32,000 nucleotides of DNA from Thermoproteus tenax Kra 1 (GTDB taxonomy: Archaea; Thermoproteota; Thermoprotei; Thermoproteales; Thermoproteaceae), in NCBI RefSeq assembly GCF_000253055.1, contig NC_016070.1, positions 30,001 to 62,000 of the forward strand. Reading direction: 5' to 3'. Under the pieces are notes generated by a model. That model searched no databases. It saw only the letters and a program-made list of their open reading frames with translations, and was not told where the DNA came from. Position 1 is the stretch's first letter. Each line of letters starts with the position of its first letter. Shown one piece after another: positions 5,301 through 30,067 of the stretch. A program made the position numbers and the translations under genes.

Positions 5301-6092
5301 TCACTTTTTCTCCAACTCTTTTACGTACTTCAAAAGCTCCTCGGCCACGTCGACGCCGCTCGCCTTGGAGACGGCCTTGAACTCAGGTATCACGTTGACC
5401 TCTCCCACGTAGTACTCGCCGTTGCCCATCAAGATGTCGACTCCGGCGTACTCAGCATTTAGAGCCCTAGTGGCCTTGATGGCTAGGTCCTCCACCTCTG
5501 CGTCCGGCTTTATGCCCTCTACATGTCCCCCTCTCGCCGCGTTGCTGCGCCAATCGCCTGGAGGCGGCCTCCTAATCATGGCGGCCACTACTCTGTACCC
5601 CACCACGAACGCCCTTATGTCCGTGCCGTCGCCTATCCTCTCTTGAACTAGATAGACCTCGTCTGGGTCTACGCCCTTCAGAAGGGCCTCTACGTCCTCC
5701 TTGGACTTGGCCAGAGCCACCTTGCGCCCCCAACTGCCGAAGGCCGGCTTCACGATGAACTCCTCGGCGTTAGGTATCGCAGGAGCCAAGCGGGTCCTAG
5801 GGATCGGGATGCCCGAGGCTCTCAGGAACGAAAGCGCCACGGCCTTGTTCCATCCAGCGGCCAGGGCCCTCCAACTGTTGATTGAGATGGAGCCCGAGGA
5901 CTCTATGTGGGCCGCCGCCACCACGGCTCTGTTGTGGCTCAACGCTCTGATGAGGTAGACTCCCTCGTCGACGTCTGTAGATAGATCTAAGCCGTCAACT
6001 TTGACTAACTCGGCCTTAACACCTAGCCTCTCAGCGGCCTTTAACAACATCCTCTCTTCCTCTTTCAATAAATCGACTACGAGCTTCACCAC
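5301..6092 (-). CDS. RimK/LysX/ArgX-family ATP-grasp ligase
   Basis: Size of ~264-275 aa and the typical LysX/RimK layout: short N-domain (KLVVDLLKEEERMLLKAAERLGV), FIVKPAFGSWGRKV, and YLVQERI...DIRAFVVG...GVDIL....YVGEVN. The track start TTG 6128 would overlap carB by 43 nt. GTG 6092 or 6089 (GTGGTGA) overlaps only the carB stop, which is the classic coupling arrangement. Confidence 0.85.
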   Translation of the reverse strand: MVKLVVDLLKEEERMLLKAAERLGVKAELVKVDGLDLSTDVDEGVYLIRALSHNRAVVAAAHIESSGSISINSWRALAAGWNKAVALSFLRASGIPIPRTRLAPAIPNAEEFIVKPAFGSWGRKVALAKSKEDVEALLKGVDPDEVYLVQERIGDGTDIRAFVVGYRVVAAMIRRPPPGDWRSNAARGGHVEGIKPDAEVEDLAIKATRALNAEYAGVDILMGNGEYYVGEVNVIPEFKAVSKASGVDVAEELLKYVKELEKK

Positions 6093-9000
6093 GGCTCTGC
6101 CCTTAGAGTGCCACCTCTTCTGAGCCAACCCCAGGCCCGCGCCAGCTCGAGCCCCAGCGTTGGGTCGAGGACTAGAGGCGTCGAGGTGTCTGCGGCGATG
6201 CGCCTGATTGAGAAGTCTCTCTCGGGGGTCACTCCAGCAGTTATGACTACGTCAACTTTCTTCCACTTGAGCTTCTCCACGATAGATTCGTCTGGCTCAA
6301 GTATGTCGAGCCACTTGAGCTCCCTCTTGATTTCATCTATCAGCCCGGCGTACTCCTCGTCGAATGTATAGACGAGCGCGTTCCTCGAGGGAATTCTGTT
6401 GGGGGTCGCCGACAGCCAGCTCTTGAGCAAGGCCTCCTCGTAGACATCGCCGAAGGAGGCGACCTCGCCTGTGCTGTACATGACGGGTCCAAGCCTCGGG
6501 TAGGCCCCCCTCAGCCTGCTCCAAGAGAACTGGGCTGTCTTCACCCACCATTTGGCCGGACGTAATACTGTCAGCTCCTGCTCCACGGGGAGGCGCTCGG
6601 AGGTCAACACGTCTGCAGTGAGCGACATGTAGTTCACGCCCGTGGCCTTGCTGACAAAGGGCATGGAGCGGCTTGCCCTCAGATTGGCCTCTATCACGTA
6701 CACGTCGTCCGCCACTATGAATTGTACGTTCATGGGGCCCTTGACGTCGAGCTCTCTGGCGAGCGTGTGGACGATTTGGGCCATCTTGTCCACGGCCCAC
6801 TGCGGCGTTTTTCTCGGCGGCATGACCATTGTGGAGTCGCCGGAGTGCACGCCGGGAGGCTCCACATGCTCTATAGCCGTGACAACGGCCCTTCTGCCGT
6901 CTGAGACTGCGTCGGCCTCGGCCTCTATGCCGTAGGGCATGAACTTGGACACAACCACTGGGTACTTCCCGCTGACTTTGGCGGCCCTCCCTAGAAACTC
7001 CAAGAGCTCTTTTTCGTTCCTCGCCACGGCCATGTAGGTGCCGCCCAGGACGTAGCTGGGCCTAAGCAACACTGGGTAGCCCAACTCCTCGGCCAGTTTC
7101 ACGGCCTCCTCTACGCTTTTTGCGTAGAACCACGGCGGCTGTTTTATGTTGAGTCTGTCCAACAAGGCTGAGAACTTCCTTCTGTCCTCGGCCAAGTCCA
7201 CTGAGGATGCGCGGGTTCCGCCTATTTTTACGCCGAGCGCCTCCAGCTTGGGGTAGAGCCTCTGTCCTATCTGTCCGCCAGCGTATAACACTATGATGGG
7301 CCCGCCCTCCTTCTCATATATGTCAAGTATTCTCTCAGCCGTTATTTCGTCGAAAAACAGCTTGTCCACAATGTCCCAGTCTGTGGAGACAGTCTCTGGA
7401 TTGTAGTTGAGGATTGCCACAGGATGGCCGCGCCTCTTGAGCTCGAGAGCCAGATTGACCGTGGCCCAGTCGAACTCGACGCTGACGCCTATTCTGAAGA
7501 CGCCGGCGCCGACGACCAGGTAGTCCGCCTTGGGCGTCGGCTCGTCGAACTCTCCGCCGTACGTCAGATACAGATAGTTTGTCTCGGCGGGCCACTCGCC
7601 GGCGAGCGTATCTATCTTTTTGACGACAGGCCTCCGCCTTGGGATCTCTCTGGCGCCTGACGCGAGAGCTATCTGCTCATCAGAGAAGCCCAGACGTTTA
7701 GCCTCCTCGATAGTCTCAGAGGATATGTCGCCAGCCTCTAACCTCTTCCACATATCTACTACTCTCTTGATGGCGTTGAGGAAGAAACGATCGACCTTAG
7801 TGATCTCGTAGATCTTGTCCACAGATACGCCGAGATAAATGGCCTTGGCGGCGTAGATAGGCCAGTATGGGAGATGTCTCTCCAACGCTCTGAGCGCCTC
7901 CTCGAGCGTTGCCTCTCTGAAGAGGGGACCTCCGACTAGGCCGGGCTCGCCTATATCTATCATCCTCACGGCCTTCTGCCACGCCTCCTCCACGTTCCTC
8001 CCTATGCCCATCGCCTCTCCTATGGACATCATCTCCGGCCCGAGGCCCTCATCTATGCCGAATCTGTCGTTCTCCCAACGTGGATGTTTCACCACTATGT
8101 AGTCTAAACTTGGCTCGAAAGCCGCCACAGTCCTCCTAGTCACTTGGTTCATGACTTCGTCGAGGCGGTACCCCAGGGCCAGCTTTGCCGCTATATAGGC
8201 CAGGGGATAGCCCGAGGCCTTCGAGGCAAGGGCGCTGCTCCGGGACATGCGCGGGTTGGTCTCTATGGCGTACTGCTCGGGCCCCGCGTAGTTTATGGCC
8301 ACTTGCACGTTGCCCTCGCCTATCAACGAGATAGCTCTCTCTACGGCTATGGAGATATTTCTGGCGGTCTGATACTCATCGTCGGTCAGCGTCTGGCAGG
8401 GGGCCACAACTATGGAGTCGCCCGTGTGATAGCCCATGGGGTCGATGTTCTCCATGCAGACCACGGCTGCCACGTTGTCGTAGGCGTCCCTCACCACCTC
8501 GAACTCTATCTCTTTCCAGCCCTCTAAGTATTTCTCCACTAGGACTTCGCCTATGGCGGACTGAGCGAAGGCCTTGTATATTTTGGACTCGAGCTCCCCT
8601 CTATTCCTCGCCTTGAAGGCCCCCGCTCCCCCCAGATTGAAACTGACGCGCACCATCACCGGGTATCCTATCTCCTCGGCCGCCGCCAACGCCTCCTCGG
8701 GGCTTCTGGCTGACCGGCTGGGAGGTATCGGCACGCCCGCCTCGACCATGGCCCTCTGGAAGAGCTCTCTGGAGAGCGCCCTCCTGATGCCCTCAACGGG
8801 CGTCCCCACTACCTTAACTCCATATCTCCCAAGGACGCCCGAGTCGTACAGCTCTACACACGCAGAGAGGGCCGTCTGGCCGCCGAAGCCGCATGCGATG
8901 GCGTCGGGCCTCTCCCTCTCGATTATCTGTTCCAGGAACTCCCTCCTTATCGGAACGAAGTAGACTGTGTCGGCCAACACCTTGGAGGTCTGTATCGTTG

Positions 9001-9279: not shown

Positions 9280-9371
9280 CGGGCCCGGTGGGATTCGAAC
9301 CCACGACCTACGGCTCGCTTCAGCGGTACGCCTCCGAAGGCCGCCGCTCTTCCATGCTGAGCTACGGGCCC
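9280..9371 (-). tRNA. tRNA-Arg (anticodon UCG) with an 18-nt intron at the canonical 37/38 position
   Basis: The reverse complement folds as GGGCCCG-UA-GCUC-AGCAUGGAA-GAGC-G-GCGGC-CUUCGG[AGGCGUACCGCUGAAGCG]A-GCCGU-AGGUC-GUGGG-UUCGAAU-CCCAC-CGGGCCC-G. The TATA box CCTTAAAAGC ends about 21 nt upstream of the 5' end. No CCA is encoded. Confidence 0.8.
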
Positions 9372-10817: not shown

Positions 10818-10937
10818 TGCGGCGGCCGGGATTTGAACCCGGGATCAACGGCTCACTGCGCCGATGGTGCGGCCTGGCAGGCCGCCATCCTACTCTGGGG
10901 GCTTTTGGCCGCCCTAACCAGGCTAGACTACCGCCGC
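10818..10937 (-). tRNA. tRNA-Gly (anticodon GCC) with two non-canonical introns (D-arm and variable region)
   Basis: The reverse complement folds as GCGGCGG-UA-GUCU-AGCCUGGUUA(GG)[~24-nt intron GCGGCCAAAAGCCCCCAGAGUAGG]AU-G-GCGGC-CUGCCAG-GCCGC-[~21-nt insert within ACCAUCGGCGCAGUGAGCCGUUGAUC]-CCGGG-UUCAAAU-CCCGG-CCGCCGC-A. 120 nt in total versus about 75 nt mature. TATA AACTTAAAAATTATCG is about 25 nt upstream. Confidence 0.75.
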
Positions 10938-19094: not shown

Positions 19095-20391
19095 CAACGA
19101 CGGAAAGGTCGTAGTAGTCGAGGACCCCTCGGAATCGGACCTAGAGAGGATAGCCAGAGAAAACCCAGGCGCACAGATAGTCGTAGTACTGAAGGAGTCG
19201 AAGGCGCCTCCTGCCAAGATCCCTAGAGACCTCCACAGGCTCGAGGTCGCCGCAGTTGAGGCATCTGGCGCCGAGGTAGCGGCCGCGCAGTTGAGGGCCC
19301 GAAGGACTCAGTTCTATATAGAGACTAGCAAGGCGGTCACGCGTAGGGAGCTGTTGAGGGGAGAGATCTTCGTCAAACGGCCTATCCCCCAGGTCCTCCC
19401 CGAGCTCTGCACTGCGAGGTTCGGCTGCTCTGAATGCGCCGACGTCTGTCCCTCGGGAGCTCTGAAGATAGTTGACAGAGAGGTTAAGATAGACCCCTCC
19501 AGCTGCTCAGAGTGCGGACTGTGTATATCTGCATGCCCCACAGGCGCCCTAGTGGCCCCATCCGCCGACGATGTAGAGGTAGCGGCCGCGTTGAACGCCG
19601 CCAGGTTACACGGCTTATCTAAGATTGTGTTCACGTGCTATAAGTCTAACAGAGTGGCTAAGGACGGCGAATACGTCTACAAGCTACCTTGTATCGGGGC
19701 GTTGGGGCCCGAGTGGCTCCTCGGAGCTATCTCAGTGGGAGGAACTGTGGAGGTCAGCTGTCCCGACCCGGGCTGTCCCGCCGGAGGGGCCAAGCCGGCC
19801 GTGGAGTTGGCCAAGAGGGTGGCCGAGGCCTTCGGCATGGCCGCGGAGGACGTGGAGGGCGGCGTCGTAGTGAGAGGGCAGAGGAGGATGATGGCGTTCT
19901 CGGGCGCGAGGCGGAGGGACTATATAGAAATCTTGTCGAAGCTTCGCGACTCCTACACTGGCAAAAGGGCCTTGGAGCTCAAGGTCTACAGAGTGGATGT
20001 CGACCCAAACAAGTGCTCTCTATGTGGCGTATGTTTCGCGAAGTGCCCGCAGAGGGCTTTCGATGTATCCAGAGACGGCGATGCCGTTAAGCTGTACCTC
20101 AACCCGCTCAAGTGCGTTGGATGTGGCCTATGTGAGGCGATATGCCCTGAGAGGGCCATAGCGGTCTCTAGACATGAGGCTCTGCCGGGCGATCTAGAGG
20201 AGAAGGCAGTGGACTATGTCGTCAGATGTAAATCTTGTGGAAGGCCCTTCGACACGATGAGGCACATAAACGCAGTGAAGCAGAAGCTGGGGATAAAGGG
20301 CGACCCAGAGTGGCTCTACCTATGCCCAGACTGCAGGCGCTACTACGCAGCTAAGAGACTTCTGGAGTCCGCTCTGAAGAGAAGCCAATAG
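19075..20391 (+). CDS. polyferredoxin with central MvhD/FlpD-like module and C-terminal Cys4 ribbon
   Basis: There are four CxxCxxCxxxCP motifs (CSECADVCP, CSECGLCISACP, CSLCGVCFAKCP, CVGCGLCEAICP). The central stretch is KIVFTCYKS...KLPCIGALGPEWLLGAISVGGTVEVSCPDPGCP. The C-terminus has CKSCGRPF...CPDCRRY. The gene overlaps the chaperone gene by 20 nt. Confidence 0.8.
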   Translation: MRMRVLSNDGKVVVVEDPSESDLERIARENPGAQIVVVLKESKAPPAKIPRDLHRLEVAAVEASGAEVAAAQLRARRTQFYIETSKAVTRRELLRGEIFVKRPIPQVLPELCTARFGCSECADVCPSGALKIVDREVKIDPSSCSECGLCISACPTGALVAPSADDVEVAAALNAARLHGLSKIVFTCYKSNRVAKDGEYVYKLPCIGALGPEWLLGAISVGGTVEVSCPDPGCPAGGAKPAVELAKRVAEAFGMAAEDVEGGVVVRGQRRMMAFSGARRRDYIEILSKLRDSYTGKRALELKVYRVDVDPNKCSLCGVCFAKCPQRAFDVSRDGDAVKLYLNPLKCVGCGLCEAICPERAIAVSRHEALPGDLEEKAVDYVVRCKSCGRPFDTMRHINAVKQKLGIKGDPEWLYLCPDCRRYYAAKRLLESALKRSQ

Positions 20392-20394
20392 TTG

Positions 20395-20434
20395 AATTTT
20401 TAATAAAACCATTTTCTGTCCTTTTGGAGTTTTT
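20395..20434 (+). terminator. cluster of oligo-T tracts ending the oxidoreductase operon
   Basis: T5 at 20397-20401, T4 at 20412-20415, T4 at 20422-20425 and T5 at 20430-20434, directly after stop 20389-20391. Confidence 0.5.
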
Positions 20435-20466
20435 CTCTCATAATATTTGAGTATTACCACATTACC

Positions 20467-20478
20467 TTTTTAAATTTA
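20467..20478 (+). promoter_or_regulatory. TATA box in a convergent-gene spacer (candidate ncRNA promoter)
   Basis: TTTTTAAATTTA is centred about 23 nt upstream of the first base of the 20495 closing helix. No protein gene needs a promoter here. Confidence 0.45.
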
Positions 20479-20494
20479 TGTAATGTCTACTAAC

Positions 20495-20636
20495 GTCCCA
20501 CGGCTCCACCGCCCCCGGCCTAAGCCGCCGCGGCTCCAACCGCGGCGGCGACGCGGGGATAAAGCCGGCGGCGTTGGACGGGGCAACCCGCCCAGCGCTG
20601 TCGGCCAAATCGGCGCCGACGGCGGGGCCGTGGGAC
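20495..20636 (+). ncRNA. candidate structured ncRNA, module 1 (three-way junction; class unknown)
   Basis: 10/10-bp closing helix 20495-20504/20627-20636. 10/10-bp hairpin 20524-20533/20540-20549. A 19-position hairpin 20564-20582/20587-20605 is capped by GNRA loop GCAA. Four G.U pairs exist only on the + strand. Confidence 0.45.
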
Positions 20637-20648
20637 ACCTATCTTTCT

Positions 20649-20736
20649 CCGCCCTTTATCTTCTCCCTCAACATTTTAACCCAGATGTTGTTCCTCGGAT
20701 CCATAAGCTTCCCACCGAGGGAGAATTAAAGGGCGG
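20649..20736 (+). ncRNA. candidate structured element, module 2 (three-way junction; may be part of the same transcript or a terminator structure)
   Basis: 10/10-bp closing helix CCGCCCTTTA/TAAAGGGCGG at 20649-20658/20727-20736. Two abutting hairpins: 20669-20674/20685-20690 and 20691-20698/20715-20722. Confidence 0.3.
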
Positions 20737-20742
20737 CGGTTG

Positions 20743-21492
20743 TTAAAGCTTGATCACCATGTTGTCCTCTGCAACAATCGCCGGATATCCGGAGTTTTTC
20801 ACCTCTAAGTATACTGTAGGATTGAATTTTTCGTCTATGTGAGTCAAAATGAGGGTGTTTGATCCCACTCTGCGGGCCACATCTATTGCTTGAAGCGTAG
20901 TAGTATGGCCGTATCTAACACAAATGTCCATGTATTGCTCGTTACATGTAGCCTCATGCACCAACACGTCCGCTCCTTGGGCCAGCCTCTCTATGGTCTC
21001 ACAGCCCGGAGAGGTATCGCCTGTGAAGACTATGTCGATATCGGCCGAGACCTTGAACGCGTAGGCCTCCTCTGCTGTATGATGACAAGCCTTAGTGGAC
21101 ACGACTCTAAGACTCCGTCCCTCCAACAACGCGCCCTCGGAAATCCGGCGTAAATGCACTTCATATCTTAGGCCTCTGAGTGTGTGCGGCGCGGCCGCCT
21201 TGAGAGTGTCTTCGACTATCTTGGGCGCAAAGATGTAGATCGGCTTTCTTCTATCTTCTATGTGCGCCTGAAATAACATCTCGGGCAGACCAAGGAAGTG
21301 ATCCATATGGCTGTGCGTTATAAAGACGTAGTCCACCTCGGTCAAAAGCCCTCTGTCAGAAAGCCTATAATGGCACCCCACGCCACAATCCACTAGAAGA
21401 ATGGTATCATCCGTGGTTATTAAGTTGGCCGCCCTCCATCTCTTGGAACCAGGGCTGCCTCCAGCCCCTGATCCTAGTATGGTGAGGTACAT
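20743..21492 (-). CDS. MBL-fold hydrolase, RNase Z/ElaC-like short form
   Basis: The N-terminus LTILGSGAGGSP...ILLVDCGVG and FITHSHMDHFLGLPEML (HxHxDH) follow the RNase Z-type order of motifs. At 249 aa it lacks an obvious flexible-arm insert. It starts 2 nt after the ABC ATPase stop. Confidence 0.75.
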   Translation of the reverse strand: MYLTILGSGAGGSPGSKRWRAANLITTDDTILLVDCGVGCHYRLSDRGLLTEVDYVFITHSHMDHFLGLPEMLFQAHIEDRRKPIYIFAPKIVEDTLKAAAPHTLRGLRYEVHLRRISEGALLEGRSLRVVSTKACHHTAEEAYAFKVSADIDIVFTGDTSPGCETIERLAQGADVLVHEATCNEQYMDICVRYGHTTTLQAIDVARRVGSNTLILTHIDEKFNPTVYLEVKNSGYPAIVAEDNMVIKL

Positions 21493-29972: not shown

Positions 29973-30067
29973 TGCGGGGGCCGGGATTTGAACCCGGGTC
30001 CTCCCGGTTATGAGCCATACGCGGGACTTCGTCCCTGGGCGCTCCAACCAGGCTGAGCTACCCCCGC
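29973..30067 (-). tRNA. tRNA with CAU anticodon (elongator Met or Ile2) carrying a 20-nt intron inside the anticodon stem (29/30)
   Basis: The reverse complement folds as GCGGGGG-UA-GCUC-AGCCUGGUUG-GAGC-G-CCC[AGGGACGAAGUCCCGCGUAU]GG-CUCAUAA-CCGGG-AGGAC-CCGGG-UUCAAAU-CCCGG-CCCCCGC-A. G1-C72 and the stem CCCGG/CCGGG argue against an initiator. TATA AAAATTTAAAAAATCG is about 26 nt upstream. Confidence 0.8.

Follow-up and report, generated by a model that had tools for sequence, protein, structure and literature searches.

A probable gene for a ~145-nt structured noncoding RNA of a previously undescribed family in Thermoproteus tenax

The locus

The 32,000-nt stretch of the Thermoproteus tenax Kra 1 genome considered here (NC_016070.1, positions 30,001 to 62,000; hereafter the window, to which all coordinates refer unless another contig is named) includes a G+C-rich block at 20493-20640 that is probably a gene for a structured noncoding RNA (ncRNA) on the + strand. 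It lies in the spacer between two convergent protein-coding genes, for a polyferredoxin and a metallo-beta-lactamase (MBL)-fold protein. An initial annotation, made from the sequence alone, had proposed an unannotated, strand-specific structured RNA with its own promoter in this position. Both flanking genes are confirmed (438-aa polyferredoxin, 249-aa MBL-fold protein), the coordinates and sequences it quoted for a TATA box, a closing helix, two hairpins, and four G.U pairs are all correct, and the proposal is supported by conservation, covariation, strand asymmetry, and the promoter. The features of the locus are:

stop codon at 20391, + strand: polyferredoxin gene (438 aa), upstream neighbor of the RNA
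20440..20466, + strand: A+T-rich upstream block (28-35% G+C) with the motif TATTACCAC at 20452-20460
20467..20478, + strand: TATA box TTTTTAAATTTA, with the core TTTTTAAA at 20467-20474
20493..20640, + strand: structured ncRNA gene as matched by a covariance model; the mature RNA is probably ~20495-20637
20637..20669, + strand: pyrimidine-rich 3′ trailer ACCUAUCUUUCUCCGCCCUUUAUCUUCUCCCUC, a probable termination or 3′-trimming zone
stop codon at 20743, - strand: MBL-fold protein gene (249 aa), downstream neighbor, convergent with the polyferredoxin gene

The G+C content of the RNA block is 71-78%, as against 28-35% in the spacer just upstream. No second element resembling it was found elsewhere within the 32-kb window.

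Secondary structure

For positions 20490-20640, the minimum free energy of the + strand is -107.7 kcal/mol, as compared to -76.3 +/- 4.2 kcal/mol for 200 dinucleotide shuffles (z -7.5, with 0 of the 200 as low); that of the - strand is -104.2 kcal/mol (z -4.8). The fold is a four-way junction of P1, P2-P3, P4, and P5. Its elements, all on the + strand, are listed here with notes on their variation among the three groups of homologs described below:

20495-20511/20620-20636: P1, closing helix, 17 positions, with A.C at 20508/20623 and U.G at 20505/20626
20512-20517/20552-20558: P2, with C20554 bulged, enclosing an asymmetric internal loop and P3
20518..20523: 5′ side of the internal loop, GCCUAA, invariant; the opposite side is GA at 20550-20551
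20524-20533/20540-20549: P3, hairpin with 10/10 pairs and the loop CUCCAA (20534-20539)
20559..20563: J2/4, AUAAA, unpaired in all predicted structures; A-rich in every group and varying in length by one base
20564-20582/20587-20605: P4, long hairpin with a GCAA tetraloop (20583-20586) and a conserved A.C mismatch at 20578/20591
20606..20609: J4/5, CAAA, preceded by C20605; the consensus across groups is C-N-R-A-A
20610-20612/20617-20619: P5, 3-bp mini-hairpin inside a perfect 10-nt palindrome, UCGGCGCCGA (20610..20619)

The initial annotation had described a three-way junction. Its helices are as described, but the junction is four-way, P2 and P5 being added by comparative data. The terminal 10 bp of P1, in which GTCCCACGGC (20495-20504) pairs with GCCGTGGGAC (20627-20636), extend to 20511/20620, and the four G.U pairs were found at 20505/20626, 20568/20601, 20570/20599, and 20574/20595. 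Across the family, P1 has 17-19 bp and joins the 5′ and 3′ ends, and the P4 arm has 17-18 bp capped by GCAA. About 75% of the RNA nucleotides are paired; those that are unpaired and invariant form short segments of the junctions and loops.

Some of this invariance is partly imposed by the search: GGCCTAA is an anchor of the pattern with which metagenomes were scanned (below), which bears on GCCUAA, and the GCAA tetraloop is likewise part of the pattern. The GCCUAA/GA loop may be like the UAA/GAN internal-loop motif. It was also considered as a kink-turn (K-turn), and rejected: the non-bulged strand fits, with GA beside P2, but the bulged strand fails the consensus, with A or U at the essential G of the G.A pair, and two homologs (L001 and L082, below) have CA rather than GA.

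The outer pair of P5 changes from U-A to C-G (CCGGCGCCGG in the tpiA-linked group), with both the hairpin and the palindrome retained. This contradicts an alternative P4-like pairing entertained in the initial annotation, whose candidate 3′ strand instead covaries as the local P5 hairpin. The palindrome could mediate dimerization or intermolecular pairing.

Conservation, covariation, and strand

Besides the copy in the window, 29 further copies (three of them cut by a contig end) were found, in metagenome-assembled genome (MAG), Logan, ENA, and JGI hot-spring contigs labeled Thermoproteus. Two of these loci were reached via the MBL protein, for which the best named relatives, 59-67% identical, are from “Thermoproteus sp.” MAGs: in L001 (a Thermoproteus sp. 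MAG) and L082 (a Logan contig), the RNA is 86-88% identical and lies between the same two genes. In another Logan contig (L081), the 286 nt of spacer that were compared match the window exactly, and the MBL protein is 99% identical. A covariance model, R1, was built from three sequences (window, L001, and L082). A scan of JGI metagenomes with the pattern GGCCTAAN{26,36}GGGGATN{15,23}GGGGYAACCC gave at least 18 loci with one copy each, and all 18 of those listed are true homologs, at 80-140 bits; seven more copies came from contigs encoding neighboring proteins.

The model-fitted alignment contains 21 sequences, 17 of them distinct. Standard pairs occupy 95.6% of its 865 cells, eight pairs are changed on both sides, and the observed covariation score is not attained in any of 500 column shuffles; if the 3′ partners are slid by 1-3 columns, pairing falls to 32-59% of cells. 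An independent treatment of 11 representatives with MAFFT and RNAalifold yields the same structure, with 98.4% paired and nine double-change pairs; here, a slide of 1-3 columns leaves 35-59% of cells paired. The expectation of a conserved and covarying structure in relatives is thus borne out by 8-9 double-change pairs, with 96-98% of cells paired. Compensatory double changes are found in four of the five helices. P1 has four such pairs (U-A/A-U, C-G/G-C, A-U/G-C, and C-G/G-C); P3 has one change from G-C to U-A, plus C-G/U.G variation; P4 has two compensatory pairs, including the series G-C, G.U, A-U, as well as five pairs that alternate G.U with G-C or A-U, on the + strand only; and the change in P5 is that described above. 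P2 varies on one side only, with 97-98% of alignment cells paired and C-G/U.G variation at one pair.

Read as the + strand, 95.6% of cells are paired, vs. 88.6% for the - strand, and there are 92 G.U cells to 31 A.C cells; this excess identifies the + strand of the window as the RNA strand. Across loci, R1 gives the + strand 139-170 bits and the reverse strand 30-52 bits. For the window itself, the corresponding values are 139.2 bits (E 5e-27) and 29.8 bits; a further model, R2, gives it 120.1 bits. The asymmetry between G.U and A.C, from which a strand-specific RNA rather than a DNA palindrome had already been argued on the basis of four pairs, and the covariance-model scores both favor the + strand.

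The RNA is not coding: homologs differ by single-base indels at four internal columns, and called open reading frames (ORFs) overlapping it number only two in a collection of 5.8 billion proteins (as a proxy for the distribution of the RNA, two matches are uninformative). The 87-aa ORF at 20483..20746 is not conserved, and its earlier dismissal as a mere read-through agrees with the indels.

Promoter and transcript ends

A TTWTAAA box (TTTTTAAA, TTATAAA, or TTTTAAA) precedes the RNA in all 18 copies for which upstream sequence is available, its last A lying 20-21 nt before the first G of P1; this spacing also holds where the contig has 62-68% G+C. The box is inverted along with the RNA in L001 and L082. 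That the RNA has its own TATA box, as first suggested for the window, is supported by this fixed distance in all three groups and by the movement of the box with the RNA upon inversion. A motif related to TATTACCAC (TAATACGAC, GATACAAC, or TATTACGTT) lies equally far from the TATA box, on its upstream side, in each of the three groups; this motif is TA(T/A)TAC-like and lies within an A+T-rich block. The block at 20440..20466 presumably has a promoter role.

In archaea, transcription starts ~25 nt downstream of the TATA box. Given the position of the box, this spacing would place the start at ~20494-20497, on the first bases of P1, without a leader. C/U-rich trailers follow P1 in all groups, and no bacterial-type terminator was found in the trailer; the 3′ end could be made within this pyrimidine-rich stretch, or exonucleases could trim the transcript back as far as P1. 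Outside the unit running from the TATA box to P1, plus a short trailer, conservation ends sharply.

Genomic contexts

The homologs form three sequence groups in two unrelated contexts, one beside the MBL-fold gene (in either orientation) and one between a winged helix-turn-helix (wHTH) gene and tpiA:

Group i (window, L001, L082): adjoins the 3′ end of the MBL gene
Group ii (L139, L146-L149, L153, L155-L160): adjoins the 3′ end of the MBL gene
Group iii (L137, L138, L140-L145, L152, L154, L161): 80-aa wHTH gene, RNA, and tpiA, all on the same strand

In group iii, 140-800 nt separate the RNA from tpiA. In the window and in group ii, the RNA and the MBL gene converge; in L001 and L082 the two are co-oriented, the RNA being inverted relative to the flanking genes as compared with the window. 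The promoter and RNA form a self-contained unit, found in either orientation beside the MBL gene and at the unrelated wHTH-tpiA locus. Conservation in relatives, part of what the initial annotation had looked for, therefore extends over three sequence groups and two contexts, including the same gene pair in L001 and L082. The RNA is absent from MBL loci without a neighboring polyferredoxin gene (L002-L005, L083-L087). In L147 (413-748) and L148 (2954-3178), the MBL gene is truncated to 75-112 residues, with fragments of a solute-binding-protein gene alongside; the RNA beside it is intact in both, at 130-140 bits.

PaREP1-family genes are found near MBL-linked RNA loci (L155-L159, ~5887-6435), in L163 (3918-4388 and 16887-17303), and in the tpiA locus L166 (1181-1762 and 9395-9868); their presence near both kinds of locus marks these regions as rearrangement-prone. 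A possible relic of an RNA terminus beside the MBL stop codon of L001, a 12/14 inverted-repeat match, is absent in L082 and was treated as chance. Two copies from metagenome Ga0080004 are irregular: in L151 (8219-8342), unrelated G+C-rich sequence takes the place of the 3′ part of the RNA, and L141 (7555-7677) has an aberrant 3′ strand of P1. Both are probably assembly chimeras rather than pseudogenes.

Two paralogs

Four or five “Thermoproteus sp.” MAGs have members in both the group-ii MBL and the group-iii tpiA/wHTH protein clusters (JCHS_4 and the series MCI446…, MDT78…, with two MAGs, and MFP3199…), and one ENA assembly contains both an MBL-linked and a tpiA-linked RNA locus. For these reasons it is likely that one Thermoproteus lineage carries two diverged RNA paralogs per genome. 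The paralogs are near-identical over a core of ~90 nt, with three G.U-compatible changes, all on the 3′ strand of P4; they differ, with compensation, in P1, J4/5, and P5.

One MBL-linked copy (L158, 3789-3935, from GCA_032249075.1), when compared with L155-L157 and L161, has the J4/5 and 5′ P5 sequences of the tpiA paralog: CUAAACCGG, of the tpiA-paralog type, is paired with CCGA, leaving a C.A mismatch. The sequence of this hybrid suggests gene conversion between the paralogs.

Comparison with known RNA families

At the gathering thresholds of Rfam 15, a scan of the window recovered only three tRNAs. A permissive scan (E<=10) of 20380-20760 returned no RNase P, signal recognition particle (SRP), 5S, tRNA, or riboswitch model, and permissive scans of three representatives, one per group (window, L146, and L143), gave only sub-threshold noise, apart from a recurring antisense match to PyrR205 (RF02803). 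With no Rfam 15 family matching at gathering threshold, the class is still unassigned, as it was left originally. A literature search of incomplete coverage found no previously described structured RNA motif of Thermoproteus or the Thermoproteales matching this RNA.

PyrR205, the Pyrobaculum sR205 family of H/ACA-like small RNAs, gives the best match in the scan of 20380-20760 and is the only Rfam family to recur in the permissive scans; like the present RNA it belongs to the Thermoproteaceae and has a G+C-rich, hairpin-like stretch. The matches, all on the - strand and antisense to hairpin P4, are at 20573-20626 in the window (22.5 bits), L146:6706-6765 (19.7 bits), and L143:6413-6466 (13.6 bits), vs. 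a gathering threshold of 35.6 bits. They depend on a 16-18-nt G+C-rich stretch, GGCGGGUUGCCCCG, which aligns with GGCGGGUUACCCCG in the 3′ guide region of the family, and in the K-loop segment of the model the alignment shows flagged non-pairs. sR205 is also only 61 nt long, vs. 145 nt here. Membership in PyrR205 was ruled out on score, strand, and the absence of a K-loop. H/ACA features more generally are lacking: the hairpins are near-perfect, with no K-turn or K-loop and no guide pocket. For the recurrence in all three groups, no explanation beyond chance or G+C-rich convergence was found.

The initial annotation had noted a loose resemblance to RNase P RNA. Type T RNase P RNA is indeed compact, G+C-rich, and lineage-specific, with a closing helix and stacked hairpins, but neither its model nor that of archaeal type A/M matches this RNA at E<=10, and neither the CR-I/CR-V nucleotides nor, specifically, a CR-V-type ACAGAA..GGCUUA are present in it. 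T. tenax and T. uzoniensis moreover have type T RNase P RNA at other loci (PMC3579882).

The permuted SRP RNA of Thermoproteus is similar in that its gene is missed by standard models and has its own TATA box ~26 nt upstream (PMC4731332). The SRP S domain, too, joins a closing helix to two long hairpins, one of them with a GNRA or GNAR loop. The T. tenax and T. uzoniensis SRP RNA is however 309 nt long (vs. 147 nt here) and permuted, with the T. tenax gene between ppdK and ppa (PMC4731332), rather than beside an MBL gene or tpiA. An SRP54-binding loop, an Alu domain, and a bulge-helix-bulge of leader and trailer are all absent here. Archaeal SRP RNA was rejected for lack of a model match at E<=10; the GCAA loop fits GNRA/GNAR, but AGCA/GGAA-type loops are absent.

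With tRNA, the RNA shares a four-way junction and the pairing of its 5′ and 3′ ends in a terminal helix, but T-, D-, and anticodon loops are absent, and P1 has 17-19 bp, as compared to the 7 bp of an acceptor stem. Neither ARAGORN nor the Rfam tRNA model finds a tRNA here, in agreement with the earlier failure to see a cloverleaf; the Rfam model does succeed with a two-intron tRNA at another place in the window. 5S rRNA was likewise rejected (no 5S_rRNA match at E<=10, and no loop E), as was a C/D box small RNA, since neither TGATGA nor CTGA occurs within 20493-20640; that no C/D boxes are present had been recognized from the outset.

Klein, Misulovin and Eddy reportedly found, in 2002, the Hgc-type orphan G+C-rich ncRNAs of hyperthermophiles by screening for G+C islands. 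The element described here resembles these in being a sharply bounded G+C-rich island in a hyperthermophile, with a promoter of its own and a very stable fold, and in lacking an assigned function. It has no similarity to them in sequence or structure (HgcG, the sole Hgc family to match, scores 7.3 bits against a threshold of 77), and the four-way junction and restriction to Thermoproteus-labeled contigs set it apart.

Possible functions and alternative interpretations

Comparative sequence evidence makes it very probable that this is a real, independently transcribed gene for a structured ncRNA. That 20493-20640 (+) is an independent gene for an ncRNA of ~145 nt belonging to a previously undescribed family is also likely. 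At the level of function, a more tentative suggestion is a heat-stable RNA that acts in trans in a structural or protein-binding role. With ~75% of the nucleotides paired, the ends clamped, and only short unpaired conserved segments, the RNA would be expected to act in trans through its shape, as a protein-binding RNA or scaffold of a ribonucleoprotein (RNP), rather than as an antisense guide; P1 would lock both ends, giving a heat- and nuclease-resistant particle. A more elaborate version, in which the RNA is the subunit of an unknown, Thermoproteus-specific RNP or ribozyme, carried on an invertible and duplicable cassette, with its core homogenized by gene conversion and P5 serving for homodimerization, is rather improbable.

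Several points weigh against the gene and its proposed role. No conserved protein partner is encoded adjacent to the RNA and no recognized protein-binding motif was found in it, so that the scaffold part of the proposal is reached by exclusion. The covariation is drawn from only three or four lineages, with few independent events, and the search pattern itself fixes GGCCTAA, GGGGAT, and GGGGYAACCC as invariant. Both ends of the transcript, and the abundance of the RNA, are inferred, and the trailers of all groups lack a conserved oligo-T terminator. Finally, the known distribution is narrow, being limited to contigs labeled Thermoproteus: the RNA is absent beside the MBL gene in Pyrobaculum loci (L163-L165), and there is no second copy within 10 kb of tpiA in a group-i genome (L166).

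The alternatives differ in what they take the conserved unit to be. P1 might be a processing stem only, from which a core of ~105 nt (P2-P5) is released or circularized as the functional molecule. This seems unlikely, even though the paralogs are near-identical over ~90 nt of core while P1 differs at many positions, all of them compensated, and rRNA processing stems are known to evolve with compensated differences. Thermoproteus also circularizes its permuted SRP RNA, by means of the tRNA splicing endonuclease (PMC4731332), but P1 is a continuous helix without a bulge-helix-bulge motif, the position of the TATA box leaves no room for a leader to pair with the trailer, and gene conversion, as in the L158 hybrid, explains the near-identical core equally well. 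If instead the unit worked in cis, as a bidirectional terminator, an insulator, or a 3′-untranslated region (UTR) structure between the polyferredoxin and MBL genes, its position ~30-105 nt from the MBL stop codon and convergent with that gene, in the window and in group ii, would be as expected; Pyrobaculum often has ncRNA genes that converge on the 3′ ends of protein genes (PMC3388794), which was counted in favor. A cis element is nonetheless quite improbable, considering that the RNA with its own TATA box is found in the unrelated wHTH-RNA-tpiA context, that its orientation to both flanking genes is reversed in L001 and L082, and that it is intact beside truncated MBL genes (L147 and L148) and absent from other MBL loci. 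At the DNA level, the inverted-repeat termini formed by P1, the inversion in one lineage, and the presence at a second locus could conceivably mark a mobile or repetitive palindrome, such as a miniature inverted-repeat transposable element (MITE) or a REP-like sequence whose hairpins act as DNA. The possibility of a MITE, raised initially, found no support in the loci examined: there is a single copy per locus in 30 loci; the 18 metagenome matches show only two contexts, and no one MAG can be credited with more than two copies; no flanking direct repeats suggest target-site duplications; and the three-anchor pattern has no match in 2.9 million viral contigs (16- and 17-mers of the RNA gave only chance matches in IMG/VR). 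The termini furthermore change in a compensatory manner, the bias of G.U over A.C is not expected of a DNA palindrome, and the conserved promoter lies outside the repeat, so that mobile DNA is very unlikely.

The remaining alternatives would assign the element to known RNAs. The weak antisense PyrR205 matches, at the same place in all three groups, could be read as an H/ACA-like pseudouridine guide on the - strand, related to sR205. This is scarcely credible for matches so far below threshold, on so short a G+C-rich basis, and with the K-loop mismatched; the nearly perfect hairpins offer no pseudouridylation pocket, and pairing is poorer on the - strand, which also lacks a conserved TATA box. 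A diverged, split, or permuted universal RNA (RNase P, SRP, 5S, or a multi-intron tRNA) might be suspected in a family whose versions are as unusual as the type T RNase P RNA, permuted circular SRP RNA, and many-intron tRNAs of the Thermoproteaceae (PMC3579882, PMC4731332), and a four-way junction with a GNRA loop is superficially tRNA-like or S-domain-like. The scans at E<=10 found none of these in any of the three groups, however, and ARAGORN was negative; T-loop, CR-I/CR-V, SRP54-binding AGCA/GGAA loops, and loop E are all missing; a type T RNase P RNA and an SRP RNA of 309 nt are already known from other loci of T. tenax and T. uzoniensis; and two paralogs per genome would be odd for such an RNA. 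It too is very improbable.

As an orphan ncRNA, the element would be of interest for several reasons. Archaeal ncRNA catalogs are dominated by guide RNAs (C/D, H/ACA, and CRISPR RNAs) and the universal RNAs, and large, intricately folded orphans with solid comparative support are rare in the Crenarchaeota. Rfam-based annotation evidently still overlooks real RNA genes in Thermoproteus, the source of the permuted circular SRP RNA and of a minimal RNase P. The narrow known distribution and lack of an assigned function mean that the finding alone opens no long-standing question, but the RNA is a well-defined target for biochemistry (partner proteins, possible dimerization, and extreme thermostability), and the R1 and R2 models would permit annotation of the family in genomes and hot-spring metagenomes.

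Other observations in the window

A second long imperfect hairpin (z -4.2 to -4.9, on either strand), with CCGCCCTTTATCTTCTCCCTC and GAGGGAGAATTAAAGGGCGG as its arms, occupies 20649-20737, in the interval separating the RNA from the stop codon of the MBL gene; the central ~45 nt (GGATCCG..AACA.CTGGGT.AAAAT) are kept in L001 and L082, and the arms are not. It may be a 3′-UTR or terminator element of the MBL gene.

A fourth tRNA gene, probably Gly-GCC, is found at 10818-10937 on the - strand (anticodon loop CUGCCA). Missed by both the whole-window gathering-threshold Rfam scan and ARAGORN, it scores 45.1 bits when a small region is scanned. It has two insertions, one of 31 nt in the D-loop region and one of 22 nt after the anticodon loop. 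Insertions near the anticodon region, which are typical of tRNA genes in the Thermoproteaceae, are also found in tRNA-Arg(TCG) at 9280-9371 (-), with ~18-21 nt, and in tRNA-Ser(CGA) at 29973-30067 (-), with ~20-31 nt.

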